Positions 5,288 through 29,468 of a stretch of 29,468 nucleotides of DNA are shown here, piece after piece. The notes beneath the pieces are model-generated. The model did no database searches, had not been told where the DNA came from, and worked only from the letters and a program-made list of their open reading frames with translations. The DNA is from Okeania sp. (GTDB lineage: Bacteria; Cyanobacteriota; Cyanobacteriia; Cyanobacteriales; Microcoleaceae): the NCBI RefSeq assembly GCF_035285525.1, contig NZ_JAYKGW010000147.1, positions 1-29,468 on the forward strand, written 5' to 3'. Both the position numbers and the translations under genes were made by a program. Position 1 is the first letter of the stretch. Each line of letters opens with the position of its first letter.

Positions 5288-5289
5288 AA

Positions 5290-6078
5290 ATGGTAGGAAC
5301 CAGTGAGGAAAATCTAGAAGAAGAACAATTAGAAGAGGAAAGAGAGGGTCTGAAAATTTTTGGGTTATCCCTTAAAGACCCAAGATTAATAGGAGGAACT
5401 ATTGGGATTTTAGGCTTAGGGGTAGCAGGATTATTAGGCTATAATCAGCTCAAGCCAACTATCGAAAAAGGTGTCGAATTAAGAACAGAAATAAAAGCAG
5501 CAGAAGTTAAAATAAAAGAGCTAGACAAACAAATAAAAGAACGACCAAAAGCAGAAGCAGAAAAGAAAAAAGCTGAACAGCAAAGAGAAGATGTAACTAG
5601 CTTATTTGCTACAGAAAAAACCATGAAAACTCTGCTGTATGATATGAACAAACTCATCGACCAAATTAATATAGGAATTACAGATGAAGACCAACAAGCT
5701 AAAATGACAAGGTTTCAACCACTGGATCCAAAAGATGGTAACTACATTGTCACCGATAATTCATTAGGACCACTGGTAAATGGCAAATTAAAGCGACGAG
5801 AATTTCAAGTAGAATTTGAGGGTAGTTATCTGCAAACCAGAGCTTTTATGATTGCTTTGGAAAGGATGCAAACATTATTAGTAGTTAAAAATTTAAGAAC
5901 TACACTGGAACAAGACAATCAAACTATAGAAGTTGAATGGAAACAAAATAAGTTCATACCAGTTAGTAAGCCAGAAAGTAGACTAATAACATCCTTTGAT
6001 ATGCACGCTTTATTGGCCTTAAGTGAAGAAGAAGCATTAGGTAAAGAAGATTCTACAAAAGAAGAAGAAACAAAGTAA
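5290..6078 (+). CDS. pilO: Type IV pilus assembly protein PilO
   Basis: It starts 2 nt after the pilN stop. It has an N-terminal TM segment (IGGTIGILGLGVAGLLGY), a coiled coil and an alpha/beta C-terminal domain, and occupies the third position of the pilMNO unit. Confidence 0.78.
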   Translation: MVGTSEENLEEEQLEEEREGLKIFGLSLKDPRLIGGTIGILGLGVAGLLGYNQLKPTIEKGVELRTEIKAAEVKIKELDKQIKERPKAEAEKKKAEQQREDVTSLFATEKTMKTLLYDMNKLIDQINIGITDEDQQAKMTRFQPLDPKDGNYIVTDNSLGPLVNGKLKRREFQVEFEGSYLQTRAFMIALERMQTLLVVKNLRTTLEQDNQTIEVEWKQNKFIPVSKPESRLITSFDMHALLALSEEEALGKEDSTKEEETK

Positions 6079-6452
6079 GGATTTAGCTGCCAGCTATCAG
6101 TTATGATTTTGATTTGTGATAAAAACCATATTATTAAGCTAGAATTAAACCTTACCACAAAAGTCGAAAATTCGGCTTCGTATTCATTTAAAGATAAGGT
6201 ATTATTGCTGTTAGCTGACATCTAATACCTGAATGCTTACGAAGCAAAATAACATAGTTTGTTAAAAAGATGTTATTTTATTAAAAAAAGTAGTCTAAGT
6301 GCTATGTATAAATTTTCCTAACTTACAAAATTTAGGAAGTTCTGAAAATAACTTTTTCATCCTGATGGGGATAAGCAATTGTATTTTTGTATAAAGTTGT
6401 GAACCACCTGTCTAAAAAACTTTGTGGAAAGTAGAGGACTGGGAAACAAGGT

Positions 6453-6555
6453 AGTTAATAATTAATAATTTAATTACCTCTTTTGTTTGATAAATAAAGG
6501 ATTTGCTAAAAGAAATTTTTTCTTGTTTCTAAATGAATGGAGAGGCTTTGTAGTT
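6453..6555 (+). repeat. Family A dispersed element, copy 2
   Basis: gttaataattaataatttaattacctc...aaattttttcttgtttct...ggagaggctttgtag. Compare with 2823-2910 and the reverse complement of 26481-26592. Confidence 0.65.
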
Positions 6556-6682: not shown

Positions 6683-6849
6683 CTATTTAGGGCTTGTCTA
6701 TGGGATATTCAAAGTCTTTACAGATAATTTTTTTAGCCTTTTTAGTCTAGAAAAAGTACCTGTTTTTGAGCTGCTTAAGGCTCCTTAAGCTAACATTTTA
6801 GACAGATAGTTGGGCAAAAAAAATACTTTCCTACTCCCCCCTACTCCTT
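6683..6849 (+). repeat. Family B MITE-like element, copy 2, with a short STRR tail (cctactcccccctactcc)
   Basis: Collinear by eye with 1787-1993, including the A-run followed by a CTACTCC-type tail. Confidence 0.75.
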
Positions 6850-7567
6850 AAAATAAAGACTTTTACGGTTCCCGATAAATCAGGCAACCCTATTTAGGGT
6901 TTGTTGATTAAATATCAAAGGATTTATGGGTAAAGATTTGAGAAATTTTAGGTCAGCAAAAAGTAACAGCTTTTAGCTCTTGGAGCTACGGTTCGCGAAC
7001 AATCAAAAAGCTCGCATTTTTTGCTTATGGGAGGCAGAAAAATCAAGGGATATTTCATCTCACTACCTTCTTACTTATTACTCACTTATTACTCATTTAT
7101 TCTGACTCCTCCCCTCTACTAAAAGACTTTTTCAGCAAACCGTATTTAATCAAGATTAACCAGAATAAAAACAATTTCAAAAGCCTTCTTTATATATTCC
7201 CAAAATCCTCTATTACTATTATTTTTTTATTTGAAATTTATTTTAACCAGAAATGGCACTACCTTTTACTAGATTAGAGGTATACTGACAGCAAGAACCT
7301 TAATCTTAATCTAAAAAGCTAAAGAGAGATTTTTATTTCTAGTTCAAAAATACGGGTGCATATAAATTTTTAATAAAGCTAAAAAAATATCACTTTCAGG
7401 AAAAAGAGAACAGGGAACAAGTATAGAGGAAAAAAGTATTTTTCCAAACATTGAGATACACTAAAAATACCTTTTTCTAATCTTGTTTTTTGTACAAACA
7501 AAAAGGAATGGGAATTTATAGAACCAGTAGTCAAAATATCATCCCTTAATTTTCTGTCCCTATCTTT

Positions 7568-7688
7568 CCCAAAATCCTAACTTGAGGAGCATGAAGCAGC
7601 TCAAAACCAAGTACCTTTTCATAACCTAAAAAGGCTAAAACTTTTATCTGTAAAAGTTTTCATACTTTTTCAGTAAACCCTAACTAGG
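7568..7688 (-). repeat. Family B MITE-like element, copy 3, inverted
   Basis: The reverse complement reads cctagttagggtttactga...cttttacagataa...ttttagcctttttag...gaaaaggtacttggttttgagctgcttcatgctcctcaagttaggattttggg. Confidence 0.75.
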
Positions 7689-7741
7689 AAAAAATTATAT
7701 TTTTTAGCAAAATACTAATATCTTACAATAAACAGTCAAGT

Positions 7742-10166: not shown

Positions 10167-10280
10167 GAATCCTGTCTATAGATATATAGTAATTCTGGTT
10201 TAGACTAAGACAATAATTTATTGCTGTCAAAGGATTTCAGCTCAAAAAATATTTCATTCTTATTCAGAATAACTATAAAT

Positions 10281-10310
10281 GTAGGTTGGGTTGAGGAACG
10301 AAACCCAACA
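10281..10310. repeat. Hairpin repeat GTAGGTTGGGTTGAGGAACGAAACCCAACA (family C)
   Basis: An 8-bp stem GTTGGGTT/AACCCAAC. The same 30-mer with one substitution recurs three times at 29345-29468. Confidence 0.9.
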
Positions 10311-10588: not shown

Positions 10589-10676
10589 GAAACCCGGTTT
10601 CTTAAAGAAACCGGGTTTCTCTGTCTCCCTACTTCCTACTCCCTACTCCGAAACCGGGTTTCTCTGTCTCCCTACT
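10589..10676. repeat. Perfect 13-bp-stem hairpin (gaaacccggtttc ttaaa gaaaccgggtttc) plus a 27-bp motif directly repeated with a 43-bp period
   Basis: The arms at 10589-10601 and 10607-10619 are exact reverse complements. The motif gaaaccgggtttctctgtctccctact occurs at 10607-10633 and again at 10650-10676. Confidence 0.9.
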
Positions 10677-11788: not shown

Positions 11789-12267
11789 TTCCCAGAAAGT
11801 TTTTGTGGATACATTACCTTGGATAGCTTTGATTAATAGATGAAAAGAGGGAGTAGGGATTAGGGAGTAGGAGTAAATAATTGATTATATTGGAGGTGTC
11901 TAATAGTAGTGATAATTTATCGGCTAAAGCTAAACAAATTTTGGTTAGACTAAAGCAACAGCAAGTTATTTTAGTAACAAAATAATTGATTTTGTTAGAA
12001 GTAGCTGATGCTTTATGCAAAACTCATCTACGTCAAAAAACTTATGCCTAGATTAATGAAATTAAACAAGTTCCAAATATTATTAAAATTATCCCTTTAG
12101 AGCAAAGTTTATTAGAGGAGGGTTGGGCAATTTACCATCAGTATTCTGACAAAGATTGGGGATTAACTGATTGTATTAGTTTTGTTGTAATGACGCAAAA
12201 AGGTATTACTGAAGCCTTTACATCTGACAGGCATTTTCAGCAAGCTGGATTTACTAAATTAATGTAA
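11781..12267 (+). pseudogene. Disrupted PIN-domain toxin (VapC-like)
   Basis: The N-terminus MINSQKVFVDTLPWIALINR ends at a stop at 11841-11843. After an STRR-like insert the frame resumes as DNLSAKAKQILVRLKQQQVILVTK*LILLEVADALCKTHLRQKTYA*INE...DKDWGLTDCISFVVMTQKGITEAFTSDRHFQQAGFTKLM. It therefore has at least 3 stops plus a frame change. Confidence 0.7.
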
Positions 12268-16600: not shown

Positions 16601-17574
16601 TAATCGAAGCGTTAGCAATTTTGCATTATGCTGGAATAGACTTTGAATGTTCTATTGCAGGGGATGCACCAAATACAGAATTTTTAAACCATTTAAAAAA
16701 TGTTGCTGAAATTCGCGGTTTTGATAGTAAAGTGCATTTTCTGGGATATTTACCCCGTCAAAAATTAATTGAACTTTTTGCCAATAATAATGTCTTAGTT
16801 TTCCCTTCTGTTTGGGAAGAACCTTTTGGGCGATCGCAAGTTGAAGCAATGGCAGCAGGTTTAACTTTGATTACCAGTGGTACTGGTGGTTCTGCTGAAA
16901 TTGTAGAACCAGGGATAAGTGGGTTGACTTTTCCCCCAGGAAATGCTTTTGCTCTCGCTGAAGTGTTAATGGGTTTGACGAAAAATATTGATAAATGGCA
17001 GCAAATGTCGGTAGCGGGTCAAAAGCGTGCTGAACTGTTTGATATTAACTGTTCTATAGATTTTTTGGAAGAAAAGTTTGAGGAACTTTTGCGGATTAGA
17101 GATGGTGATCTCAAGTTTTTAGAGGAGAAGTATTTACCTTCTTTACAAGAAAAACTGCGGTTAAGGGAAATCAATTTCATGATTTTCCCAGACTGGTTGC
17201 AATCAGAAGAAACGGTGGGATTAGAATTACAAGAAGTTATCAAAAGTATGGTGACTCATCCAGATAAGAATAAGATAACTTTATTAATAGATAACAGTAA
17301 TATTTCTGCGGAAGATGCAGATTTAATTTTATCTAGCGTGGTGATGAATTTGTTAATGGAAGAAGAATTAGAGATAGATGAGGCAGTAGAAATTGTTTTA
17401 GTTGGGAAATTAAGTCAAATACAATGGTTAACTTTAATACCTCAGTTGCAAGGTCGGATTAAATTAGATAATGAGAATCAGGAGGCGATCGCTCAAGTTA
17501 AAGCAGAAAATATTCCTGTAATTGAACTTGATTGTTTGCCAGAGAAAATTCATAGTTTTCCAACCCAAGAATAG
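13633..17574 (+). CDS. 1313-aa mosaic polysaccharide-modifying enzyme: class I methyltransferase, tail module X, DUF579/GXMT-like methyltransferase, TPR repeats, GT4 glycosyltransferase, tail module X
   Basis: The aa 80-190 region has ALEIGCWLGWSACHLA...IFIDGNHE...LFHD. The aa 449-590 region has CNFLVFGVGKDSKFW...WDVIFVDAPGGYSDEVPGRMKSIFMAAKLA...TDVFVHDCDRLVE. TPR-like helices span aa ~645-755. The GT4 region has EPFGRSQVEAMAAGLTLITSGTGGSAEIVEPGISG. Module X is repeated at aa 279-390 and 1178-1290. The start is GTG. Confidence 0.85.
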   Translation: MKSFSLQSGDYVSPGMLVVLPDECFPNIIIGDKKYSTWRYSRKEIPHNRYVDKRFPGVGFNNRDEVHILYNTALKFKGKKALEIGCWLGWSACHLALAGVELDVIDPLLENQDFYESVSSCLEAANVLETVNLIPGYSPQKVEELADTLDYKWSLIFIDGNHEAPGPLNDAIACEKLATEDALILFHDLASPDVSQGLDYFKQKGWNTMIYQTAQIMGVAWRGNVEPIKHQPDPKIQWSPLPEHLKDYLVSGLSTEELKNKTVEIKEAFDKFPLIPFKLNLVNLICFPDWEQTEENLFSDLEKIVRAILNYSDRNEICLLIGIDKIDEEEADNILSSVVMKIFMEEDVDVTKEPQLYLLADLSSRHWSALLPRIQFRIAIENENVGMVEKTINLPSITLDLLTSIKFNNFIPSLSKYSNQIIQLVNSNPGQLSRAEYSYITDVVVNRKSCNFLVFGVGKDSKFWMEVNQNGETIFVEDHPDWLNQVKANCPNIQAYAVEYGTNRKQWLDLLVQYSQGIDSLLMSLPEKILQTKWDVIFVDAPGGYSDEVPGRMKSIFMAAKLAFINGNTDVFVHDCDRLVETIYSGYFLHDKNLITKVDKLKHYQIINQDQKPKINYLFPREKSYQTEIIKDSLLSSQNNLLKTVLTLEEVLKENPENVTTLVELGKLSLKLEDLQVAKKLFAKAISLERRNCIAIELLGKVLIDLNEYQEATNILEHLVKIQPQNLSTLSLLEKCYRQIGKQKEATSVINYYRDLETGKNVASLPTNLSEKFISKTKPKRILIINNLYPPQELGGYGRRICDFANVLDKRGHTIHTLASDAPYLGEIKSPETNVTRELLLCGTYEKLPPRQFTDESEVQSVIAHNDALIRKTIENYAPDVCLVGNIDLLSNSIFLPLLEKSIPVIHLLGFAQPGYPVDCTPNSPLYFVGANSEYGRQGLIKQKYPLDEIGVVYPGAFIQQFQMCCFPNLDKLRIVFASLVLPYKGPQTLIEALAILHYAGIDFECSIAGDAPNTEFLNHLKNVAEIRGFDSKVHFLGYLPRQKLIELFANNNVLVFPSVWEEPFGRSQVEAMAAGLTLITSGTGGSAEIVEPGISGLTFPPGNAFALAEVLMGLTKNIDKWQQMSVAGQKRAELFDINCSIDFLEEKFEELLRIRDGDLKFLEEKYLPSLQEKLRLREINFMIFPDWLQSEETVGLELQEVIKSMVTHPDKNKITLLIDNSNISAEDADLILSSVVMNLLMEEELEIDEAVEIVLVGKLSQIQWLTLIPQLQGRIKLDNENQEAIAQVKAENIPVIELDCLPEKIHSFPTQE

Positions 17575-17604
17575 AAGGTTAATAATGCAGAAAAAGTAGG
17601 CAAA

Positions 17605-17758
17605 GTTTACCTTTGATTAATTAGGTAATCTGAGGCAGACACAGATTTGAGTAGAGATAAACAAGGTAATCATTTTGTATACTAATTATTTTGTATATCT
17701 GTTCCAAAAATCTGTGTCGTGCCCAAATTCATACCAATTTTACCTAATTATGATAAAC
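17605..17758. repeat. Imperfect inverted-repeat element (MITE-like, or a large hairpin) at the 3' boundary of the 1313-aa gene
   Basis: Two pairs of perfect complementary blocks occur in collinear order. aattaggtaa (17619-17628) pairs with ttacctaatt (17740-17749), and gacacagattt (17638-17648) pairs with aaatctgtgtc (17708-17718). The outer gtttac/gataaac ends also pair. Confidence 0.4.
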
Positions 17759-17786
17759 TTGATAAATTATTAATCAAGGTATTTTA

Positions 17787-18086
17787 CTAATTTTCCTCAG
17801 AGGAATTATCTGGAATTAACTCCTCAAACTCTGCCATAGAATTAACCCGAATTGTTTCTAATAGGAGTTGTTTTAGGGAAGCTAAATCCTCAATATTATT
17901 CAGAGTTTTTACTAGAGTTTCTGGAACTGATAAAAATCGTACTTGGAGTAAGTCGAGAATATTTTGTCGGAAAGTTTTTTGCATACCACGGTCTTCCATT
18001 GTACTTAATAATTCCACTTTCTGTTCCTCCTCATATTGATTTATTTTAGTTTCAAGGTTTTGTTGTAATTCTGCGGGCAATGCCAT
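17787..18086 (-). CDS. Free-standing DUF4351-type protein, homologous to the C-terminal 103 aa of the Rpn-family protein at 22349-23299
   Basis: The 99-aa ORF MALPAELQQNLETKINQYEEEQKVELLS...IRVNSMAEFEELIPDNSSEEN aligns end to end with aa 214-316 of the 316-aa protein. It begins at the residue equivalent to that protein's internal Met214. Confidence 0.5.
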   Translation of the reverse strand: MALPAELQQNLETKINQYEEEQKVELLSTMEDRGMQKTFRQNILDLLQVRFLSVPETLVKTLNNIEDLASLKQLLLETIRVNSMAEFEELIPDNSSEEN

Positions 18087-18101
18087 TTCAGTTATCAGTT
18101 A

Positions 18102-18260
18102 TCAGTTGATTAATTCTAATTGATTAATACATTGAAAATCTTCTACATTTCGAGTTACTAAAATCAAATTATGAACTAAAGCAGTTCCAGCAATAATAGC
18201 ATCTCCTAATATCAAAAGATAAAAATCATACTTTATTAGCTCAGGATTTAGAAAGAATAC
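18102..18260 (-). pseudogene. C-terminal remnant of a PIN-domain (VapC-like) toxin
   Basis: The minus-strand reading gives ...LILGDAIIAGTALVHNLILVTRNVEDFQCINQLELIN*. This is the D-x-IIA-x-TA...LVTRN-x-x-DF signature of PIN toxin C-termini. There is no N-terminal half and an upstream in-frame stop. Confidence 0.5.
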
Positions 18261-18328
18261 TTAAATCAAGTTATCCTATTCTGCTATGTTATGGTAAAAT
18301 AATATTATTTGTTTAATTAATTTATAGA

Positions 18329-20332
18329 ATGCAACAACTATCTCTACCCCTAAATATACCAAATACTCAACTAAATACAACTTCGCAATTTCGAGAAATG
18401 CTAACAGCTTTAAATATAACAGATAGTTCTGGTTGGCCTGATAAATTTGGGATATCAATTCATAATTGGTTCACAAAAAATTCCTATTCTCCTATTAAAA
18501 CTATGAGTCTATTTGCTGGTGGTGGTGGACTAGATATTGGCTTCCATGATTGCGGTTTTAAAATAGTGAAAATGGTCGAATTAGAAGCAAAATATACTAA
18601 AACTTTAGAAGTAAATTCTCAACCAGCAAAATACTTAGAAAACAGTGAACCTCTCTGCATAAATATTCAAGAATATTTTCCCTCTCCAGAATTAGAAATA
18701 GACTTTATTATTGGGGGTCCGCCATGTCAAACATTTTCAGCAGCAGGTAGAAGAGCATCTGGTGTTTCTGGAACAAACGATAGTAGAGGAACGTTATTTT
18801 CGGAATATGTTCGCATCTTAAAACAACTACAACCAAAAGGATTTTTGTTTGAAAATGTTTATGGAATTATTGGTGCGGAAAATGGCAAAGCATGGCAAAA
18901 GATTAAAATAGCATTTCAAGAAGCAGGTTATACAATTTACCATCGCATACTTGATGCAGCAGATTATGGTGTACCACAACATCGAGAGCGACTATTTATT
19001 GTGGGATTAAAAAAAGGAAATTATTTATTTCCTGCTCCAACTCATGGACCTGATTCTGTTAATCAAGAACCTTTTTATACAGCATTAGCAGCAATAAAAG
19101 ATATTAATGTTTCAGAAAAAGAATTAGGAATTAAAGGTAAATATGGGCATCTTTTAAAAGATATACCACCTGGATTAAATTATAGTTTTTACACGGAGAA
19201 AATGGGTCATCCTGAGCCGATTTTTAGTTGGCGTTCTAAGTTTTCTGATTTCCTTTATAAAGCAGATCCAGAAATGCCAGTTAGAACTATTAAAGCACAA
19301 GGAGGACAATATACAGGACCTTTCAGTTGGGAAAATCGACGGTTTTCAATAGCAGAATTAAAACGACTTCAAACATTTCCTGATATTTATGAAATTATTG
19401 GTAATCGTTCGGTTTGTATAGAACAAATAGGTAATTCTGTACCACCACAATTAGGAAGGATTTTAGCATTGAGTATTTTGGAGCAAGTTATGGGAGTTAA
19501 GTTACCATTTTCTCTGCAATATTTATCTCCAACTCAACAATTAGGATTTAGACAACGAAAGCGTCAGTTGACAAAAAGATATGCAGAAAAAGCTAGGCAA
19601 GCGATCGCTAAATTATCTACTCAATCTTTAGATAAATTAAAAGCTATATCTCTACCAACAAATAGTTATGTAAATCAAAAGAATATAGAAAGGTTTTTAT
19701 CTACAGATTTTGGCTGGTATAATTTGCAAAAAAATAATTCTGTAAAGATTTACATTAGTTATGATTTAGGTAAAAGTTGTTGGTTAATAGATGCAGGTAT
19801 TAGTCAGTTGGAAGAGAAAAAAAGTTTATATTCTATAGATATAATACCTGTCACAAATTCTCAAGATTGGGTTTTAAATACAGAGAGAGTAAAATTAATT
19901 GCTCGTGATGATAATTTGCAAGTATTTACAGGATTATGGAAAGCTTTTGAAGAAAGGTTGAGAGAAATAACTGGTAAAGCAGATTTAGTTCAATTATCTG
20001 GATATTATCAGTATCAACCAAAGATTAAAATGACAATGAATTTTTCTATGGAGTTAAAGACTAATTCTATTTGGAAAATAGTTGAATTTATTGTTAGAGG
20101 TGTAGGAGTAAAAACTCAATTATCTGGTCAAGAATTAGCATTTTTATGGGGAGTAAATATTGAGGATATTTTTGATTATCTCCAATGTTTACGAAAAATA
20201 GGTTATGAAGTTAGGAATCACAATACAAATCCTCAAATTACTCCAGGAGAATATTTAATTCCCTACTGTTTTCCAACTTTAACACCTAAAAGTGTGCAGT
20301 TAAGAAAGAATTTAGGAGCATCTAATGAATGA
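18329..20332 (+). CDS. DNA (cytosine-5)-methyltransferase with a ~278-aa C-terminal extension of unknown function
   Basis: The motifs occur in canonical order: LFAGGGGLDIGF (I), GGPPCQTFSAAG (IV, catalytic Cys133 at 18725-18727), FLFENV (VI), QHRERLFIVG (VIII), RRFSIAELKRLQTFPD (IX) and GNSVPP (X). Residues 390-667 lie beyond the methyltransferase core. Confidence 0.93.
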   Translation: MQQLSLPLNIPNTQLNTTSQFREMLTALNITDSSGWPDKFGISIHNWFTKNSYSPIKTMSLFAGGGGLDIGFHDCGFKIVKMVELEAKYTKTLEVNSQPAKYLENSEPLCINIQEYFPSPELEIDFIIGGPPCQTFSAAGRRASGVSGTNDSRGTLFSEYVRILKQLQPKGFLFENVYGIIGAENGKAWQKIKIAFQEAGYTIYHRILDAADYGVPQHRERLFIVGLKKGNYLFPAPTHGPDSVNQEPFYTALAAIKDINVSEKELGIKGKYGHLLKDIPPGLNYSFYTEKMGHPEPIFSWRSKFSDFLYKADPEMPVRTIKAQGGQYTGPFSWENRRFSIAELKRLQTFPDIYEIIGNRSVCIEQIGNSVPPQLGRILALSILEQVMGVKLPFSLQYLSPTQQLGFRQRKRQLTKRYAEKARQAIAKLSTQSLDKLKAISLPTNSYVNQKNIERFLSTDFGWYNLQKNNSVKIYISYDLGKSCWLIDAGISQLEEKKSLYSIDIIPVTNSQDWVLNTERVKLIARDDNLQVFTGLWKAFEERLREITGKADLVQLSGYYQYQPKIKMTMNFSMELKTNSIWKIVEFIVRGVGVKTQLSGQELAFLWGVNIEDIFDYLQCLRKIGYEVRNHNTNPQITPGEYLIPYCFPTLTPKSVQLRKNLGASNE

Positions 20333-21647
20333 TTTATATTTAAGAGTCTTTAAAGATCAAAGTGAACTGGTACAGAGCAATGGCAAAAAACAGATTTTTT
20401 TAGAAGGTAAAATGAGCCATGAAGCTAGAATCAGATATCATAAAATCACCAATGAACTAGCAAATAATTACTTAGAAAAACAAATTCTTGCTTGTCGCGA
20501 TCGCAATGTTATGAGTGATGGATTTCAACTTGAACAAAGTCAAATAAATACTTTGAATAAACTTGTTAATTCAGTTACCAGTGAGGTTGGTAGAGCATTA
20601 GTTGGTTTAACAATTTTACAGTTGTGTATAAAAAGTATTGAACCGAAACAAAGTATTAGACTACATAAAAGCAGCACAAATAGAAATGCTTTTTCATGGC
20701 AAGAAGGAATACCAATGCGTTCTTTAGACAAACAATATATTACTCCTATTTTGCGCAAATACGAATTATTAAAACTAAATGCAGATGGATTTATGATGAC
20801 GCGCAGTTTAGCAGAAAATTATCCTTATTCACCTGTTTATAAAGCTAATATTAGAGGAGCGCGTCTGGAGTGGCTTAGTCTCGTAGAATTAATTGAAGAA
20901 AATCAAATAGACTCAAAAAATTCTCTACATTATTTAATATCGCAATTACTCAATAATGCTAGAGAATTTCAAAAATTAGCTACAGAAACTCTTGATTATG
21001 TTCAAAATTTTTTAGATTCAAGTGAAGTTATAAATCAGAAAATTATTACTAATTTGATATGGAGACATATAGAAGAATCTGATTATGCTGCACGGATTAT
21101 GGAAATTGCTATACATAGTCTGATGCAGGCAATGGAAGAAAATCAACTATTTCCAGATTGTGAACTTAAGCCTTTATCGCAAATGCGGTCTGCTAATAAG
21201 AAACATGGCAATATTGGCGATATTGAAATATTAGAAAAGGGTAATATTATTGAAGCTTGGGATGCAAAATATGGTAAGGCTTATTTACGAGATGAAATTG
21301 AAGAGTTAGCTGATAAATTATTGAGTCATTCTCATGTTAAATTAGCTGGTTTTGTGACAAGTGTTAAACTCCAGCGACAATCAGAGTTAATATCTCGTTG
21401 TGAAGAACTAGAAGAAGAATTTGGAATTTCTCTGGAAATATTGACATTTATAGATTGGGTTCAAAACAAATTTAATCAAGCAATAGAAAAGGGTTTTTTG
21501 ACAGAAGAAAAGTTAGCAGGTGCATGGTTAATTGCTTATGCTGAATCAATAGCACAAAAACGTCGCAATATTGCACCTATTGATGAACCTTGTCAACAAT
21601 GGTTAGTTACTTTAAAAGATATTTTAGAAGATGTCATATCCATTTAG
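20325..21647 (+). CDS. Putative type II restriction endonuclease (C-terminal PD-(D/E)xK-like core), partner of the methyltransferase
   Basis: The ATG overlaps the methyltransferase stop by 8 nt (ATGAATGA). The candidate catalytic layout is GD299IEI-x9-IIE310AWD313AK315 (21219-21269). I did not recognise a named REase family. Confidence 0.6.
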   Translation: MNDLYLRVFKDQSELVQSNGKKQIFLEGKMSHEARIRYHKITNELANNYLEKQILACRDRNVMSDGFQLEQSQINTLNKLVNSVTSEVGRALVGLTILQLCIKSIEPKQSIRLHKSSTNRNAFSWQEGIPMRSLDKQYITPILRKYELLKLNADGFMMTRSLAENYPYSPVYKANIRGARLEWLSLVELIEENQIDSKNSLHYLISQLLNNAREFQKLATETLDYVQNFLDSSEVINQKIITNLIWRHIEESDYAARIMEIAIHSLMQAMEENQLFPDCELKPLSQMRSANKKHGNIGDIEILEKGNIIEAWDAKYGKAYLRDEIEELADKLLSHSHVKLAGFVTSVKLQRQSELISRCEELEEEFGISLEILTFIDWVQNKFNQAIEKGFLTEEKLAGAWLIAYAESIAQKRRNIAPIDEPCQQWLVTLKDILEDVISI

Positions 21648-21801
21648 TTTTAGGTATAGCTGTTGCCAACTTTTATCCTTGTTATTTTATTATTTAGAAC
21701 GAGGCAAAAACCGGGTTTATTAACTAAAATTGGTGCTTTAATAGACAACAATTAAGGAATAAACTCGGTTTCTTTGTTGGTTTGCTTAAGCTCCGATTTT
21801 T

Positions 21802-22070
21802 CTAATTTCCCCCAGAGGAATTATCTGGAATTAACTCCTCAAACTCTGCCATAGAATTAACCCGAATTGTTTCTAATAGGAGTTTTTTTAGGGAAGCTAA
21901 ATCCTCAATATTATTCAGAGTTTCTACCAGAATTTCTGGCACTGATAAAAATCGTACTTGCAGTAGGTCGAGAATATTTTGTCGGCAAATTTTTACCATA
22001 CCACGTTCTTCCATTGTACTTAATAATTCCACTTTCTGTTCCTCCTCATATTGATTGATTTTAGTTTCAA
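21802..22070 (-). pseudogene. 5'-truncated DUF4351 (Rpn C-terminal) copy
   Basis: It reads ETKINQYEEEQKVELLSTMEERGMVKICRQNILDLLQVRFLSVPEILVETLNNIEDLASLKKLLLETIRVNSMAEFEELIPDNSSGGN. Homology stops abruptly at about 22070, where the duplicated REase tail begins. Confidence 0.7.
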
Positions 22071-22074
22071 TATG

Positions 22075-22194
22075 TTAATTGCTTATACTGAGTCCATAGC
22101 ACAAAAACGTCGCAATATGGCACCTATTGATGAACCTTGTCAACAATGGTTGGTTACTTTAAAAAGTATTTTAGCAGATGTCATATCCATTTAG
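22075..22194 (+). pseudogene. Duplicated 3' fragment of the endonuclease gene (last ~39 codons)
   Basis: LIAYTESIAQKRRNMAPIDEPCQQWLVTLKSILADVISI* compared with aa 402-440 of the 440-aa protein (21528-21647). The intergenic sequence after it (22195-22348) also duplicates 21648-21801. Confidence 0.85.
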
Positions 22195-22348
22195 TTTTAG
22201 GTATACCTGTTGCCAACTTTTATCCTTGTTATTTTATTATTTAGAAGGAGACATAAACCAGGTTTATTAACTAAAATTGGTGCTTTAATAGACAACAATT
22301 AAGGAATAAACCCGGCTTCTTTGTTAGTTTGCGTAAGTTCCGATGTTA

Positions 22349-23299
22349 CTAATTTTCCTCAGAGGAATTGTCTGAAATTAATTCCTCAAATTCTGCCATA
22401 GAATTAACCCGAATTGTTTCTATATGTAACTGTTTTAAACGAGCTAAATCTTCAATATTATTCAGAGTTTTTACCAGAGTTTCTGGCACTGATAAAAATC
22501 GTATTTGCAGTAAATCGAGAATATTTTGTCGGAAAGTTTTTTTAGATCCTTTCTCAATACCACGTTCTTCCATTATACTTAATAGTTCCACTTTCTGTTC
22601 CTCCTCATATTCATTGATTTTAGTTTCAAGATTCTGTTGTAATTCTGGAGGCAATGCCATCATTTTATCTATGAATTTAAACAAGTTAATAATCTCCAAC
22701 TTGCTTAATCCCTTTTCATATAAACTTCTGACTAATTGCCATTTCCATTTTTCTCGTTCTGTTAAATCCCTGGTGGTACTCTTAGTTCTTAAGTGTGCCA
22801 TTACCATTGTAGCAAAAACATTGTTACTTGCTGATAATTCCTCCCACTTATAATCTAAGAGTTTCACGATGTCAAAATTTAATTTCATGCGACTTTTTTT
22901 GAACTTATATTTATAAGAACTGGGTCGCCAAGATGGGTTCTCATCTCCAAGTATAGCTAAACTAGCTACTTTTTGATCGTATAGGTCGAATGCTCGATAA
23001 TTATAGATAAACATTCGTTTGGGAAATTCTTTGTCGTATTGACTTTGAACTTCTATATGAATTAACAGCCATTTTTTTCGGTTGTTTAATAACCAAACTT
23101 GAAATAATTTGTCAGCATAACGTTTTTTTGTTTTGGCTGAGGCTGTAATTTCTTCTAGTTCTTTGTCTAGAGAAATTGGTGTTTTTTCCCAGTTAATAGA
23201 CTTGTAAATTTCTGGATAGAAAAAGCTGAGGAAAGATGGCAAATATTCTCCAATTGCTGCTTTCCATGGTTCGTCATAGTTGGCGGTTATTTCTGTCAT
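22349..23299 (-). CDS. Rpn-family (YhgA-like, PD-(D/E)xK 'putative transposase') nuclease with a DUF4351 C-terminal domain
   Basis: 316 aa. The N-terminus has YDEPWK...YLPSFLSFFYPE, then YADKLFQVWL...WLLIHIEVQSQ (a D...E-x-Q nuclease core) and ...RMFIYNYR. The C-terminal domain is identical in type to the free-standing copies. The internal Met213-Met214 lie at 22658-22663. Confidence 0.8.
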   Translation of the reverse strand: MTEITANYDEPWKAAIGEYLPSFLSFFYPEIYKSINWEKTPISLDKELEEITASAKTKKRYADKLFQVWLLNNRKKWLLIHIEVQSQYDKEFPKRMFIYNYRAFDLYDQKVASLAILGDENPSWRPSSYKYKFKKSRMKLNFDIVKLLDYKWEELSASNNVFATMVMAHLRTKSTTRDLTEREKWKWQLVRSLYEKGLSKLEIINLFKFIDKMMALPPELQQNLETKINEYEEEQKVELLSIMEERGIEKGSKKTFRQNILDLLQIRFLSVPETLVKTLNNIEDLARLKQLHIETIRVNSMAEFEELISDNSSEEN

Positions 23300-23303
23300 T
23301 ATT

Positions 23304-23665
23304 TTACTGACTTTTCCAGATAAATTATCTGGAATTAACTCCTCAAATTATCCCACAGAATTAACATTATTTGCAAAAGCTTTAATTTCAGCTAGTTTTT
23401 CTAGTGCTTTTGCCATTTGTTCGTCACGAGATTTTTGATTTAACTCTGGTTTTTTTCTAAGAAAGTAACATAGACTTCCTGGGGGCGATCGCTCAATTCT
23501 GGAGTATCTTCTGTCCACTCTAAATGCTTTCCTGTTAATACAGCATTATAGGTGCGTAAAATAGTGTTTTATTGATTATTTGTTATAACTAATTCTACAC
23601 ATATTTTGGTAGTAGAAAGGTAGAAAAGATTATCATTAGGATATGCTTTAAATACCACAATAAAC
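23304..23665 (-). pseudogene. Debris of small genes: another DUF4351 tail fragment plus an antitoxin-like ORF broken by an in-frame stop
   Basis: The minus strand has AGGAGG, 6 nt, then GTG-VFKAYPNDNLFYLSTTKICVELVITNNQ*NTILRTYNAVLTGKHLEWTEDTPELSDRPQEVYVTFLEKNQS*. It then reads ...DEQMAKALEKLAEIKAFANNVNSVG*. The stretch 23320-23360 repeats the ...ttatctggaattaactcctcaaa... tail sequence. Confidence 0.35.
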
Positions 23666-23675
23666 CTCCTACATT

Positions 23676-26372
23676 TTAATCAGAAGATAAATCGCGCAAT
23701 TTACTCTGCCGTAATTTTGCCAACAAAGAGGTAGGATCAATTCCTGCATCTTGATAAGCTTGAATAGCACGTTTACGCCAATCAAGATTCTCTTCTCCTG
23801 GAAAGCTACGCCTTAATTCTCTAACTGTAGATATTGCATTAGTTGCCCACTTTTTGAAGTCTTCTAAATTCCAGTAACATACGTCTTCTGTATAAGGTTT
23901 AGCATCAGGTTCTATTTTTGCACAAGGTGTAATGAGGGCTGGAATAATATCTGCGGATTGAGATAAAGAGGTATCTTTATTTTCTCTAATCCATTTTGGG
24001 TGCGATGCTGCCTCTCTAACTTTGACAGACCCGAGGGTAGTTTCTGTATTGCCTTCTGAGTGGTCTTCAAATACTATGCACAAGTCATCTCCAGCAATCC
24101 ACCAAGGGTCTGGAGCGCTATGGGTTGTGGAGTTACCTGAGTCATAACCCAATAGTTTTCCTAATCTTTCATGGCCGTCCTCAAATTTTTTACTTAGCTT
24201 GTTACGCCCCTCATCTGTCAGATTTTGCCGATCTTTTATTGGGGGATTTAGATTATCAAAAATTGCTCTTACCTCTTTATCAAATTTTGTACTATTCCTT
24301 GTACCTAATTTGATTAATCGCTGCTCTAAACCTTCTATCACTTTGCTAAGTCTTGGATCGACTTGAGGAACTTCATCTTCTAATGACAATCGAGCAAGTC
24401 GTGAAAACCATGTAACCTCTGGAGCAACTTTAGCAGCACGTTTAAAATAATCTCTTGCCTTACTTTCCATAGAGGTAATTCCATCTTTGGCTCCCATCCA
24501 TGCAGCACTTCCTGCAAGATAGTACCAAAAAGCGATGTAACCTCTAAGCTCTGGATCATTTGCTTGGTTAAGCTGACTAAAAACACTTTCGCACTTAGCT
24601 AGAGCTTCTTCAAAATTGCGATGCCAAATACAATACTGATATTTTACTTCATCAGAAACAGTTTCTTTCAGCTTTTCTATTGCAGGTAGTTTAGCTTGCT
24701 CTAATCTTCCTCTATGATAAATTATGTCTTCCTCAGCTTGATTCCATTTTTCTCCATGTTCTAAAAAAATATTAAGGTTTTCAAGAAAATTCCTCTCTTT
24801 TTCTTCTTCTTTAGATTGCTCAATTGTATCTTCAATTTCCGCAAAATATGTTTCTTCTTTTTCTGCTTTAGATTGCTCAATTCCATATTCAATTTCCGCT
24901 TGTAATTCAGGATGTAAAAACTTTTGTTTGTCAGGATTAAGTAAAAGATTTCTTAACTCATCTCCTAATATAACTACTGCTGCATAATCAGTATCAGACC
25001 TTGTACAACGCCCCACTGCTTGAACCATTCTAGTTATAATCCGGTCATTGAAAATTACAGCAGCACACAAACGGGTAACTAAAAATTTTTCTTGAATATT
25101 TGTAGCTCGCTGCAAATCTTTAACTATTAGTAACCGACATTCATCTTTTGGTAGATCGATTCCATCATATCTATTTGCTAGGACAGCAACAGCTCCATCT
25201 TTGGAAATAAAATCTTGTTTAGAAGTTTCAATTTCTTTACTTTCAAATATTTGATATTTTGTCTGCTCTTCAATCTTCTCTTTTACTTTCTTTGCTTGCT
25301 CATCATCTGGAACTAAGAAAAGAGAGCGAGGAGTTGAACGGAGCATTTTCATTACTAAATTTAAGGATGATTCTTGATTAAGCGAGCTTTCAGGAAAAAA
25401 GAAAAAACGACGACCAATACCTTGCTTATCCCAACCTTCTGGTACTTTTAAACGAAAAATATTTTCTATTCCAAAAAGACGCTCTATTTCTCCCCCTTCT
25501 CCTAAAGTTGCAGACATATATAAACGTTGTTTTGCTTGTGAGAATGGTGGATGGGTTTGAGTAGGAGGTATTACAGGTCTAATTAATATAGCGTTAAAAC
25601 TCAAATATATATGGCAGGCAAAAAGATGATTTCTTAGTACAGACCAAGGATACTTAATTTCATCAGAAGTATCTTGATCTAGTAGTTCTGTTAATTCTGT
25701 TCTTAATTCATATAAATCTGGTGTAGGAATTGTTTCAACCCAACTTAAATCTGATTTATCTGGATATTTAAAAAACCTTAAATAGTCTGATTCTGATATA
25801 ACCTTCTTTAAAACAGATATAATATTATTGAAAAGTGAGTCATGTTCTTTTCGTTTTATTAAGACAGACCAAAATTTAGCGACATAGTTTTCGGCAGCAT
25901 GAGCATCATCAAGTATGATTATATTTGCATCCTGAAAAAACGAGTTTGTGTTAAATAAACCACTATATGTAGTAACAGCTAAAGTTTCTCCACGCAGATA
26001 TTCTGTCTTAATTTTAGGATCATATTCCTTTTGTTTTCCAGTAAAAGCATTTGCTTTGATTCCATACTCATTAATAGACTTTTCAACTACTTGATTAACT
26101 AATTGACGAGTAGGGCAAAGATATACTACCTTTTCTTTAAACTTTCGTCGTCGCCATTCCCCAATTAATAATCCAACTAGAGTTTTACCACTGCCAGTAG
26201 GAAGTTGCAAAGCTACATCAGATTTGTTCAAAGTTTCTTCTTTTTGATATTCTCGTAATATGTCTGCTTGATGAGAAAGAAGACCTTCTATTTTTCGATT
26301 TCTTAAGTCGCGGAAAAGTGCTTCTGGAGTTTCAGGTATTATGGTTGAATGCCTAGTCTTTTTTAGTGCCAT
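23676..26372 (-). CDS. SF2 helicase (DinG/Rad3-like C-lobe flavour) fused to a ~420-aa C-terminal region with a helical-repeat segment and a restriction-endonuclease-like module
   Basis: The helicase motifs are PTGSGKT (aa 58-64), LDDAH (154-158), MSAT (286-289), NRYDGIDLPKDECRLLIV (400-417) and QAVGRCTR (451-458). The C-terminal module is FEDGHERLGKLLGY...APDPWW...LCIVFEDHSE (aa 730-773). Confidence 0.85.
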   Translation of the reverse strand: MALKKTRHSTIIPETPEALFRDLRNRKIEGLLSHQADILREYQKEETLNKSDVALQLPTGSGKTLVGLLIGEWRRRKFKEKVVYLCPTRQLVNQVVEKSINEYGIKANAFTGKQKEYDPKIKTEYLRGETLAVTTYSGLFNTNSFFQDANIIILDDAHAAENYVAKFWSVLIKRKEHDSLFNNIISVLKKVISESDYLRFFKYPDKSDLSWVETIPTPDLYELRTELTELLDQDTSDEIKYPWSVLRNHLFACHIYLSFNAILIRPVIPPTQTHPPFSQAKQRLYMSATLGEGGEIERLFGIENIFRLKVPEGWDKQGIGRRFFFFPESSLNQESSLNLVMKMLRSTPRSLFLVPDDEQAKKVKEKIEEQTKYQIFESKEIETSKQDFISKDGAVAVLANRYDGIDLPKDECRLLIVKDLQRATNIQEKFLVTRLCAAVIFNDRIITRMVQAVGRCTRSDTDYAAVVILGDELRNLLLNPDKQKFLHPELQAEIEYGIEQSKAEKEETYFAEIEDTIEQSKEEEKERNFLENLNIFLEHGEKWNQAEEDIIYHRGRLEQAKLPAIEKLKETVSDEVKYQYCIWHRNFEEALAKCESVFSQLNQANDPELRGYIAFWYYLAGSAAWMGAKDGITSMESKARDYFKRAAKVAPEVTWFSRLARLSLEDEVPQVDPRLSKVIEGLEQRLIKLGTRNSTKFDKEVRAIFDNLNPPIKDRQNLTDEGRNKLSKKFEDGHERLGKLLGYDSGNSTTHSAPDPWWIAGDDLCIVFEDHSEGNTETTLGSVKVREAASHPKWIRENKDTSLSQSADIIPALITPCAKIEPDAKPYTEDVCYWNLEDFKKWATNAISTVRELRRSFPGEENLDWRKRAIQAYQDAGIDPTSLLAKLRQSKLRDLSSD

Positions 26373-26455: not shown

Positions 26456-26480
26456 TTCACTTAATTTACTGAATAATTAA

Positions 26481-26592
26481 GGTTTAAAGCCTCTCCTTTA
26501 AAGGAGAATAAAAAAAATTGTTTTTAGTCAATCTTCTCCTTAAAAAGAAGAGGTAATTATTAATTATTCATTATTAATTATTCATTATTGAA
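26481..26592 (-). repeat. Family A dispersed element, copy 3 (inverted), abutting the acnB stop codon
   Basis: The reverse complement reads gttcaataatgaataattaataatgaataattaataattacctc...attttttttattctcc...ggagaggctttaaacc. Confidence 0.65.
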
Positions 26593-29202
26593 CTACTTCC
26601 CAACACCAACTGGCATTCCCAAAATCTCCTCAATCTTGGGCATCTCCTCCAACGGAATCACTCGCCCTTCATCTTCAAAACCAGCAATCTGATCGAAATT
26701 CAAATACCGATACAAATCACCCGCAAACGGATCGACTTTCTCTTTCATAATATCCAAATACTCATCCACACTAGGTATCCGTCCTAACAGCGCACACACG
26801 GCTGCCAACTCAGCAGAACCCAAATAAACGCGAGCGCCTTTACCCATACGATTATTAAAATTCCGTGTTGAAGTCGAGAACACAGTCACACCATCTTTCA
26901 CCCGCGCTTGATTTCCCATACACAAAGAACATCCAGGCATTTCTGTCCGCGCACCAGCAGCAGCAAACACGCCATACATTCCCTCTTCCCGCAACTGTTT
27001 CTCATCCATACGAGTTGGCGGACAAATCCACAAAACACCTTGCACTTTTCCAGCACCTTCCAACACTTTCGCAGCAGCACGATAGTGACCAATATTTGTC
27101 ATGCAGGAACCGATAAATACTTCATCAATTTTATCTCCTGCACATTCCGACATCAATTTAATATTATCCGGATCGTTAGGTGCTGCCAGAATAGGTTCCT
27201 TGATTTCGTTCAAATCTACCTCAATAATTTCGGCATATTCTGCATCTGCATCTCCTGACATCAATTCTGGATTTGCTAACCATTGTTCCATTTTGGCAAC
27301 CCGACGCATAATTGTCCGCGCATCGGAATAACCCCGCGCTACTATATTTTTTAACAAAGCAATATTTGAACGCAAATACTCAGAAACTGTCTCCGTACCC
27401 AACTTGATTGTGGAACCAGCACAGGAACGTTCCGCCGTCGCATCCGTTAACTCAAACGCTTGTTCAACCTTCAAATCTGGTAAACCTTCCATTTCCATGA
27501 TGCGCCCAGAAAAGACATTTTTCTTATTCTCTAGCGCTACAGTTAACAACCCTTTTTGAATCGCCACATAAGGAATAGCATTCACAATATCTCGCAATGT
27601 CACCCCTGGTTGCAACTCACCTTTAAACCTTACCAACACAGATTCTGGCATATCCAACGGCATCAAACCCAAAGCTGCTGCAAACGCTACCAAACCAGAA
27701 CCCGCAGGAAAAGAAATTCCTAGAGGAAAACGAGTATGAGAATCACCACCAGTTCCCACTGTATCTGGTAACAACATCCGGTTTAACCAAGAATGAATAA
27801 TACCATCTCCCGGACGTAAAGCTACTCCACCGCGAGCAGAAAAGAAATCAGGTAACTGTTTATGAGTCTTAATATCAACTGGTTTGGGATAAGCAGCAGT
27901 GTGACAAAAACTCTGCATTACTAAATCTGCACTGAAACCAAGACAAGCCAGTTCTTTCATTTCATCTCGCGTCATCGGTCCGGTAGTATCCTGAGAACCT
28001 ACCGTTGTCATCAATGGTTCGCAAGCTGTTCCCGGACGAACTCCTGGTAAACCGCACGCTTTACCCACCATTTTCTGTGCTAAAGTGAAACCTTTGCCGG
28101 TATCTGCTGGTGCTTGAGGACGAGTAAATACGGAACTGGTTTCTAATCCGAGAGCGTTGCGGGTTTTGTCAGTGAGACTACGCCCGATTAATAGAGGAAT
28201 CCTTCCCCCTGCTCGTACTTCGTCGAGAATGGTTTCTGGTTTCAGAGTAAAAGTGGAAATTATTTCTCCTGCTTCATTGGTAATTTCACCTTTATAAGGA
28301 TGAATAGTTATTACCATTCCTGTTTCCATTTTAGTAACATCACATTCGATGGGTAATGCACCAGAATCTTCAGCAGTGTTGAAGAAAATAGGAGCAATTT
28401 TTCCTCCTAAAATATAACCGCCAGAACGTTTATTCGGAATAAAAGGAATATCTTCCCCAATATACCACAACATAGAGTTACATGCAGATTTCCGGGATGA
28501 ACCTGTACCGACAACATCTCCAACGTAGGCGACTGGATGACCTTTTTGTTTGAGTTCGGCAATAGTTTGCAATCCTTCCGGCATTTTTGATTCCAGCATT
28601 GCTAATGCGTGGAGGGGGATGTCGGGGCGAGTGGTAGCGTGGGGAGCCGGTGACAAGTCGTCGGTATTAGTTTCCCCAGGAACTTTGAAAACAGTGACGG
28701 TTATGGTTTCTGGTAGTTGGGGGCGAGTGGTGAACCATTCTGCTGCTGCCCAAGAATCTACTACTTGTTTGGCGTAGGGGTTGGTTTCTGCTAATTCTAT
28801 AACGTCGTTGAAGGCGTCATAAACTAGCAGAGTTTTGCTTAATGCTTGAGCTGCTGTATTTGCCAGTTCAGAATTTTCGGATTTGAGGATGTCAATGAGG
28901 GATTGAACGTTATATCCACCCACCATTGTGCCTAAGAGTTCCACTGCGTAGTTGGGAGAAATGAGGGGACTGGTAATTTCTCCTTTAGCAATACCTGTAA
29001 GAAATCCTGCTTTGACATAAGCTGCTTCGTCTACTCCTGGTGGGACGCGATCGCGCAATAATTCGAGCAATTTTTCTTCTGTGCCGACAGGTGGACTTTT
29101 CAGGAGTTCACATAATTCTGATGTTTGTCCTGCATCTAGTGGCAGTGGTGGGATGCCTAAATCTGCCCGTTGTTGAACTTGGTTGTCATAGTTTTCTAAC
29201 AT
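26593..29202 (-). CDS. acnB: Aconitate hydratase B / 2-methylisocitrate dehydratase
   Basis: 869 aa with the AcnB-specific HEAT-like N-terminal domain ([24 protein letters not shown]...). The aconitase core motifs are [21 protein letters not shown] and [13 protein letters not shown]. Confidence 0.96.
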
Positions 29203-29314: not shown

Positions 29315-29468
29315 ATTAAGTAATTTTTCTAATTTTCTAAAGGTGTAGGTTGGGTTGAGGCACGAAACCCAACAGATTAAGTAATTTTTCTAATTTTCTA
29401 GTAGGTTGGGTTGAGGCACGAAACCCAACAGATTAAGTAATTTTTCTAATTTTCTAGTAGGTTGGGTT
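29315..29468. repeat. 56-bp tandem repeat (family C hairpin plus an AT-rich linker), 2.7 copies or more, truncated by the window end
   Basis: The unit is gtaggttgggttgaggcacgaaacccaaca + gattaagtaatttttctaattttcta. Hairpins start at 29345, 29401 and 29457, and the linkers are identical. Confidence 0.92.

Follow-up and report, generated by a model that had tools for sequence, protein, structure and literature searches.

Direct repeats of an rpn-like gene family around a restriction-modification operon in a cyanobacterial defence island

The contig NZ_JAYKGW010000147.1 of Okeania sp. (assembly GCF_035285525.1), analysed at its full length of 29,468 nucleotides (nt; hereafter the window), carries a putative type II restriction-modification (R-M) operon that lies between two long direct repeats, both derived from the 3' end of an rpn-like gene. 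We regard it as probable, with considerable room for doubt, that this bracket is a by-product of homologous and illegitimate recombination within a duplication-prone rpn family, and neither the termini of a mobile R-M unit nor a target-site duplication. The setting would be a variable defence island, reaching from a large glycosyltransferase gene to acnB in a Dapis/Okeania-like marine cyanobacterium, whose content appears to comprise a PDC-S28 helicase, an Rpn-like toxin/antitoxin gene, an intact type II 5-methylcytosine (m5C) R-M operon, and stubs of PIN, AAA-ATPase and rpn genes. The segments that carry the argument, with open reading frames (ORFs) and lengths in amino acids (aa), are:

17781 to 18086, minus strand: copy A, the stand-alone 3' (RpnS-type) part of an rpn-like gene, with an ORF of 99 aa at 17787-18086
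21796 to 22070, minus strand: copy B, an rpn 3' part cut off at 22070, with an ORF of 76 aa at 21802-22032 that has a GTG start and keeps the upstream GAGGAGG
22349 to 23299, minus strand: copy C, the Rpn-like gene at full length (316 aa), in which a putative PD-(D/E)XK-type core at the N-terminus is followed by a helical tail of RpnS type at the C-terminus
23300 to 23365, minus strand: copy D, an rpn 3' end reduced to a stub of 66 nt, which contains an in-frame stop and borders directly on the start codon of C
18329 to 20332, plus strand: M, a C5 cytosine DNA methyltransferase of 667 aa with a C-terminal extension of ~280 aa
20325 to 21647, plus strand: R, a putative restriction endonuclease of 440 aa, overlapping M by 8 nt
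21527 to 22632, no strand assigned: tandem duplication with a period of 547, in which the 3' end of R, the spacer and the 3' end of rpn each occur twice
21648 to 21795, no strand assigned: spacer s1 between the convergent R and rpn genes, with a hairpin of 14-bp stem, AAACCGGGTTTATT ... AATAAACTCGGTTT
22074 to 22194, plus strand: R'2, the duplicated last 121 nt of R, now a pseudogene, 93.4% identical to 21527-21647
22195 to 22342, no strand assigned: spacer s2, the duplicate of s1

Copies A (17781-18055) and B (21796-22070) form a direct repeat of 275 nt that aligns without gaps at 94.2% identity and an offset from A to B of 4,015 bp (E = 5e-121, repeat search and self-blastn of 17000-24000); by direct count, 259 of the 275 positions are identical and 16 are mismatched. 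A first-pass annotation of the window had described same-orientation repeats of ~300 bp at 17776-18086 and 21797-22070: the repeats and their orientation are real, their length is 275 nt, and the homology begins at 17781. The perfect run of 72 nt that it reported (17798-17869 = 21813-21884) and a further one of 38 nt (17871-17908) proved exact, and a third perfect run spans 50 nt (17992-18041). Copy A is 86.2% identical to C (22343-22660) over 318 columns with a single 12-nt gap (self-blastn), and A and B each lack a 12-nt (4-aa) unit that C carries. The translations likewise agree with the annotation in that A and B share the states LQV, ASL, LLLE and IPD, where C has LQI, ARL, LHIE and ISD. 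The 31 nt at 18056-18086 of A are matched only in the full-length copy C and have no counterpart in B. The ATG that starts the ORF of A corresponds to the internal 'MALP' methionine of the full-length protein, and the DNA homology to C stops at the same ATG; an apparent protein similarity upstream of it (tblastn, to residue 196) was rejected, being the C-terminus of a PIN-domain remnant read through two stop codons.

Copy B is at the same time one arm of the tandem duplication, in which 21527-22073 and 22074-22632 are 88.7% identical with one 12-nt gap (blastn). The duplicated unit takes in 121 nt from the end of R, the spacer of 148 nt and the 3' end of rpn. The R' and spacer segment left of B is 93.3% identical to the one left of C (18 of 269 positions differ) and the two spacers are 93.2% identical, with a predicted fold for s1 of -35.6 kcal/mol (z = -1.9). 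Inspection of a three-way alignment, with the related contig L012 as the outgroup, places seven of the eight differences between R and R'2 on the R'2 branch. A Logan assembly contig (SRR19514071), independent of the window assembly, is 100% identical to 18012-21578, so the junctions from the right end of A through the PIN and ATPase remnants to M and R are not an assembly artefact; this support ends at 21578, and the junctions of B are seen in the window assembly alone. Since the copies have diverged by 6-14%, they are not duplicates made by the assembler. Exact-protein look-ups returned no match for R and the full-length Rpn, and for AcnB and M they returned only short Logan contigs of SRR19514071, without alternative junctions.

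That the repeats come from the C-terminal coding region of an Rpn-like gene, as had been proposed, is supported by an RpnS-type tail with variability in four-residue steps. At rpn loci, Zhong et al. (2023, PNAS; PMC10400941) reported tandem direct duplications with variable ends, separate downstream rpnSs genes, variation of 4-aa repeats and enrichment in defence islands; in E. coli, RpnL is not neutralised by an RpnS whose number of repeats differs (PMC10400941). Copy C has 2,820 homologues, some of which are annotated as Rpn family or YhgA-like, and for those at 59-63% identity NCBI and JGI use the names 'Rpn family recombination-promoting nuclease/putative transposase' or 'YhgA-like', which is annotation and not a test. 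Across 68 homologues, D63, E83 and Q85 are invariant, and the repeat region between residues 244 and 260 has a length of 13, 17, 21, 25, 29 or 37 residues and takes no other value. The units are GQQI, GQEK, GQER and GKEI. At this variable site A and B differ from C by an indel of exactly one 12-nt unit, and the 13-residue state of A and B occurs in just one of the 68 full-length homologues. In the AlphaFold2 model of C (predicted local distance difference test, pLDDT, 86.5), a beta-rich N-terminal core is followed by a helical tail with a long first helix, and the three invariant residues lie at the start of strand 62-70 and at the end of strand 75-83. The model of A (pLDDT 86.3) is all-helical, its helix 26-51 corresponding to helix 242-268 of C.

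In all six copies examined, copy A among them, GAGGAGG and an 8-nt spacer stand before a conserved internal Met/Val (V239 in C; GTG in A, B and C). The 4-aa repeats start ~10 residues past this position, inside the 8-20 range given in PMC10400941. These features are consistent with, and no proof of, an internal start that would give an RpnS of ~76 aa. We therefore treat the gene as one that probably works like an Rpn, on the strength of the repeat hallmark and not of curated hidden Markov model (HMM) thresholds. A full-length homologue elsewhere in the family, P0170 (387 aa), has two tandem RpnS-type C-terminal domains fused in frame, which matches the fusion of rpn with a downstream rpnSs mentioned as an outcome by Zhong et al. 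(PMC10400941).

The relationships among the copies are discordant with those of their flanks. Within 17781-18055, 22 sites set A and B apart from C, 10 are particular to B and 6 to A. When polarised with the copies of Okeania SIO3B3 (locus L089), at least nine of the sites shared by A and B are derived, notably the block TCCCTAAAACAACTCCTAT, and all six A-only sites are changes unique to A. The flank of B is paralogous to that of C, yet B itself is sister to A, which requires at least one homologous exchange among the copies. The number of synonymous substitutions per synonymous site (dS) is 0.36 between A and C and 0.24 between C and its Okeania orthologue, so that the A lineage is old. The divergence of A and B (5.8%) is about that of the two R' and spacer segments (6.7%). 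At three to four sites it is B that retains the family consensus, A having rare states in common with C (KTFRQ, VKTL). Two simple derivations were rejected. B is not a mid-repeat hybrid with a C-like left and an A-like right part, given that the sites shared by A and B span 17783 to 18038; any crossover between A and C would be confined to the first ~27 nt, where the two share a 24-nt identical block. Nor does A derive from B, since A reaches 31 nt further into rpn.

The two bracketing copies also differ in how they have changed. With branch changes polarised by C and two Okeania copies, the A branch has four synonymous changes and one conservative non-synonymous one, and the B branch has no synonymous and six non-synonymous changes (Fisher's exact p = 0.015). 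The neutral probability of at most one non-synonymous change in five is ~0.01, and the ratio of non-synonymous to synonymous rates (dN/dS) between A and C is 0.16. On this pattern, A looks like a maintained stand-alone RpnS-type gene, presumably an expressed one, and B looks like a decaying duplicate. As A lies one repeat unit below C, the repeat-number rule of E. coli (PMC10400941) would imply that A is not the cognate antitoxin of C; by this analogy A, and likewise B, would not be expected to neutralise C.

The history that we favour would start from the arrangement M-R-spacer-rpn, which is also seen in relatives: in the related contigs L012 and L091, R is accompanied by the spacer and by an rpn stub of 84 nt, which makes the order R-spacer-rpn ancestral. 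Two routes could lead from there to the present locus. In the first, a local 547-bp tandem duplication of the 3' end of C together with its flank would have produced B, an event of the type from which rpn loci derive their 'downstream small homologues', and gene conversion by an A-type copy would then have altered B. A precedent for each step is found in Okeania L089, where an independent 436-bp tandem duplication of the rpn 3' end and flank (94% identity) has its differences clustered in the RpnS core. In the second, unequal crossing-over between A and C would have doubled the 4,015-bp unit from A to the spacer, and a 3.5-kb deletion would then have left R'2 and s2. This second route is favoured by the similar divergence of A/B and R'/spacer and by the fact that B is A-like up to the R'2 junction, and it is burdened by a crossover that must fall in the first ~27 nt of homology. 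Comparable structures occur in other genomes: L089 has a D-like stub together with the full gene (4870-5897), and Microcystis L087 has the full gene followed by a C-terminal fragment. In L089 (Okeania sp. SIO3B3), the rpn unit at 4807-6483, made up of the D-like stub, the full gene and the 436-bp duplicate, sits between DUF433 and DUF5615/PIN-like genes. On either side of it lies one copy of a direct repeat of 62 nt (4807-4868 and 6422-6483; 87%), in which the stop codon of DUF433 and the start of DUF5615 are included. [quoted passage not shown]

An alternative that we consider unlikely, while granting that several observations speak for it, is that the R-M operon is a selfish mobile module that uses the flanking repeats in the manner of Kobayashi's model (insertion with long duplication, amplification and release), R'2 and s2 being the remnant of an amplified copy. 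The features of the window that bear on its boundaries are:

18286 to 18328, plus strand: left boundary of the R-M unit common to relatives, with -10-like boxes upstream of M
18099 to 18213, minus strand: C-terminal remnant of a PIN-domain (VapC-like) gene, recognised by translation and by PF01850 (E = 0.0044, below threshold)
18214 to 18280, plus strand: 5'-end remnant (63-67 nt) of an AAA-ATPase gene, matching L011 20383-20321 and L015 17638-17577 at 90-94% (blastn)
23676 to 26372, minus strand: DEAD/DinG-like helicase, the defence candidate PDC-S28, full length by PADLOC (PDLC04987, E = 2.7e-116) and also recognised by Pfam, a sign that a defence island lies downstream of acnB

To the right of the R-M operon follow the full-length rpn-like gene, the PDC-S28 helicase and then acnB (26593-29202), whose product has its affinity with Dapis, Okeania and Trichodesmium (95-96% aa identity). 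Downstream of acnB, Dapis, Okeania and related metagenome-assembled genomes have differing defence cassettes (GmrSD-like; N6/N4 methyltransferase with restriction endonuclease; AAA-ATPase with S8 peptidase; PDC-S28; m5C R-M), which identifies this segment as a variable defence island. Three related contigs (L010, L012 and L091) carry the R-M operon in the same acnB island at 94.7-96.5% nucleotide identity, and L011 and L015 carry other cassettes there.

In the same genome pairs, dS against the relatives is 0.12 for M and 0.09-0.14 for R, as opposed to 0.46-0.47 for acnB, so roughly four-fold lower in the R-M genes, and this holds although the R-M copies of the relatives are pseudogenes. A dS so far below that of acnB means that the module was exchanged between the lineages after their split. 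The comparison clearly points to an R-M module that moved between lineages, its landing site each time being the acnB island, beside the 3' end of an rpn gene. This exchange after speciation suits a mobile module, as do the occurrence of the M-R pair in unrelated genomic contexts in other cyanobacteria, the 72-nt perfect block within direct repeats, and the equal divergence of A/B and R'/spacer, which fits a single duplication of the whole unit.

The repeats, however, do not appear to be the ends of what moved. In a three-way alignment, the homology with L010 and L012 starts at TATGTTAT, ~43 nt before the ATG of M, and the unit common to L010, L012 and L091 (~18286 to the spacer and rpn stub) excludes A. 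Of the related contigs, three extend to the upstream side, of M in L010 and L012 and of the island in L011, and all three lack the upstream repeat; L091 is silent on that side as it ends inside R. In the relatives the operon decays in place (M has lost an internal segment in frame, and R is frameshifted in L012 and truncated in L010), without clean repeat-mediated excision. The extra 31 nt of rpn follow the left copy and not the right one, so that the geometry of a target duplication fails, and three R-M contexts in other genera have no rpn neighbour. Neither an empty site with a single repeat nor an amplified allele was found in 80 genome loci and one metagenome scan; the latter, with a 29-mer across the R stop codon and the start of the spacer, returned one L012-like contig. 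The first-pass annotation's view of the operon as mobile is thus supported in the sense that the module changed lineages, and a role of A and B as its ends is not; the empty site it suggested looking for was not found among these related genomes, and L010 and L012, which carry the R-M, have no left repeat. Its proposal that the repeats allow RecA-type recombination stands in so far as the 72-nt perfect block is long enough and a scar of exchange is present, and it finds no empty or amplified allele on its side. Through these repeats, the 3.7-kb R-M segment could be lost or amplified in a RecA-dependent way.

More doubtful still is pure coincidence, in which A and B would be unrelated debris of an abundant, pseudogene-rich family and would share no event: small ORFs annotated in Okeania, Trichodesmium and Xenococcus do include C-terminal rpn fragments of many lengths, stubs (D, PIN, AAA-ATPase) make a patchwork of the locus and the full-length family has more than 2,800 members, but A and B share their derived substitutions along with the rare 4-aa deletion state, they are 94% identical while the A-C distance exceeds that between C and its Okeania orthologue, and the flank of B duplicates that of C, so that its A-like sequence needs an exchange.

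A bolder reading, to which we give little credence, would see the rpn 3' (RpnS) segments as portable homology with which rpn-rich cyanobacteria duplicate, delete and exchange neighbouring defence cassettes. R'2 and s2 would then be what is left of a tandem amplification of the whole R-M unit through crossing-over of A with C, possibly started by RpnL cleavage, the R-M module would have spread between Dapis/Okeania-like lineages attached to an rpn stub, and A would be a selected orphan RpnS with a repeat number that mismatches the resident RpnL.

Several points weigh against reading the bracket as a by-product of recombination in an rpn family. Membership in Rpn is below threshold by HMM, as C scores 19.0 bits against PF04754 (Transposase_31; cut-off 21, E = 0.0011, residues 56-110 only) and 22.2 bits against TIGR01784 (cut-off 52.1), and fold searches gave no significant match. 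Foldseek of C against PDB yielded only non-significant matches to restriction-type nucleases (E >= 0.26). Taken together, sequence searches of PDB with Rpn and R and Foldseek with the models of C and A gave nothing significant and no solved RpnS, small helical bundles being hard targets. The DUF4351 label that the first-pass annotation had put on the repeats had to be dropped, as PF14261 does not match A, B or C even at E up to 10, and only 3 of 120 listed full-length homologues carry this domain. For R, no domain is recognised in Pfam, NCBIfam, PADLOC or PDB. The contrast between the A and B branches is drawn from 11 polarised substitutions, which gene conversion could bias. The two routes are inseparable with the sequence of the window, and the partner in the exchange of B is not necessarily A, as it could be an A-type paralogue elsewhere in the genome. 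Finally, the relatives are of species level and not strains of the same population, so that rare excision or amplification alleles could not show.

Within the R-M operon, M matches PF00145 (E = 2.5e-66), TIGR00675 and the PADLOC model MTase_II (E = 3.7e-76). R has more than 1,600 cyanobacterial homologues and is paired with a long methyltransferase in all 15 loci examined; this pairing suggests that R is the endonuclease of the system, as do its overlap of 8 nt with M and the fact that the two genes decay together in L010 and L012. A general linkage of this operon to rpn was rejected, since no rpn neighbour was seen in any of the three homologue contexts checked, in Heteroscytonema, Coleofasciculus and Gloeotrichia. 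In Heteroscytonema and Gloeotrichia (L092, L093, L095 and L096), a shorter second C5 methyltransferase gene (328-344 aa) precedes the homologous M-R pair, and the combination of two methyltransferases and a single putative endonuclease may point to a recognition site that is asymmetric.

The interval between A and B had been described as holding only a vapC remnant, the methyltransferase-endonuclease operon and its 3' spacer. The operon and the spacer are there, the PIN remnant is a weak match (profile positions 87-111 of 120 in PF01850), and the AAA-ATPase remnant lies inside as well. The ATPase gene is intact in relatives and paired there with an S8 peptidase (L011 ORFs, Pfam). The heptamer TCAGTTA occurs three times on the plus strand (18087-18107), exactly in the interval that separates the PIN remnant's stop codons from the ATG of A, and other heptamer arrays (CTCCCTA-type) lie at 1945-1997, 10625-10649 and 11847-11871. 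A promoter and terminator scan gave 25 promoter-like sites against 30.7 in shuffled sequence and no terminator in the spacer; it says nothing on the expression of A or B. The best sigma-70-like match of the region (TTGACA, 18 nt, TG-extended -10, 10 of 12 positions) is antisense within the R 3' end (21596-21567, minus strand) and is duplicated in R'2 (22143-22114), where it points towards B; it carries little weight, promoter-like sites being no commoner than in shuffled sequence. To the left of A, the 68-nt segment 17614-17681 matches L015 12806-12873 (Okeania KiyG1) at 87%, ~210 nt downstream of acnB, and is either a dispersed element or the far boundary of the island, in which case ~9 kb of cassettes would lie between it and acnB.

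Further repeats were observed elsewhere in the window. A dispersed repeat of ~130 nt in the gap between the helicase gene and acnB (26465-26595) has three copies in L089 and is also found in L090 and L013 (76-86% identity); Okeania-type genomes may have in it a small element, mobile or structured, that does not code for protein. An inverted and direct repeat family at 1784-1922, 6711-6822, 6891-7148 and 7550-7700, with arms (6717-6799 / 7571-7654) that enclose ~770 nt and homologous copies in Okeania L089 at 4191-4446, looks like a miniature inverted-repeat transposable element or an insertion sequence remnant. A perfect 56-nt tandem repeat (29345-29400 = 29401-29456, within 29324-29456) with the hairpin GGTTGGGTTGAGGCACGAAACCCAAC, and a related copy at 10260-10310, is a short dispersed hairpin element just upstream of acnB. 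Within the PDC-S28 helicase gene, a 57-nt tandem duplication (77%) at 24779-24892 encodes a repeated acidic segment, EKEETYFAEIE... / EEEKERNFLENL...

The locus adds a cyanobacterial case that links two published ideas, the origin of stand-alone RpnS copies by tandem duplication at rpn loci and the long direct repeats that often flank R-M modules, and it indicates that a recombination-prone gene family can give rise to a bracket of this sort incidentally, and that the bracket is not necessarily a device for mobility. It extends the hallmark of RpnS, hypervariability in four-residue steps, to a large cyanobacterial family barely recognised by current HMMs. Copy A, as a candidate orphan RpnS with signs of purifying selection, offers a tractable object for the rule of matching repeat number, and the low R-M dS relative to acnB records that a defence module was recently exchanged at a conserved island.

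Among known systems, the rpn part of the locus resembles E. coli rpnE-ypaA (RpnL/RpnS with rpnSs; PMC10400941) in its putative PD-(D/E)XK-type N-terminal domain and its small helical C-terminal domain. As there, 4-residue repeats (Gly, charged, hydrophobic) vary stepwise in a long helix, ~10 residues past an internal Met/Val with an upstream GGAGG, and partial C-terminal copies that stem from tandem direct duplications with variable ends stand beside the full gene in a defence island. Such stand-alone RpnS copies beside rpn genes having been described already (PMC10400941), the 'unusual combination' that the first-pass annotation saw here is less unusual than it had appeared. Unlike in RpnL/RpnS, the Transposase_31 and TIGR01784 matches are sub-threshold and DUF4351 is not detected, the duplication took in 269 nt of the neighbouring R gene and spacer, the stand-alone copy A lies beyond the R-M operon, 4 kb from the full-length gene, and A and B are one 4-aa unit short of C.

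The bracket also resembles the R-M insertions with long target duplication of Furuta et al. (2010, PMC2853133), in that the putative type II R-M pair is enclosed by repeats of the same orientation whose length far exceeds that of typical site-specific recombination sites, with signs of horizontal movement and a neighbouring scar compatible with a past duplication. M and the putative R lie inside, the insert is below 20 kb and the direct repeats exceed 30 bp (275 nt here), as in their definition, which also asks for an empty site with one copy aligning to both repeats and a target continuing past the right copy; here B abuts R'2. Unlike in those insertions, the repeats belong to a multicopy gene family and are not a duplicated target, and the relatives with R-M have no left repeat. 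The best fit is the third class of Furuta et al., R-M between pre-existing repeated sequences, with secondary exchange. Compared with a repeat-mediated amplifiable R-M unit (PMC2853133, its reference 84), there is only the indirect scar R'2-s2, with a divergence of 6.7% against 5.8% for A/B. Set beside other variable defence islands at a conserved chromosomal anchor, the locus is one further configuration and nothing unusual. It is thus a new instance of known categories, rpnSs duplication and R-M between pre-existing family repeats, and not a new kind.

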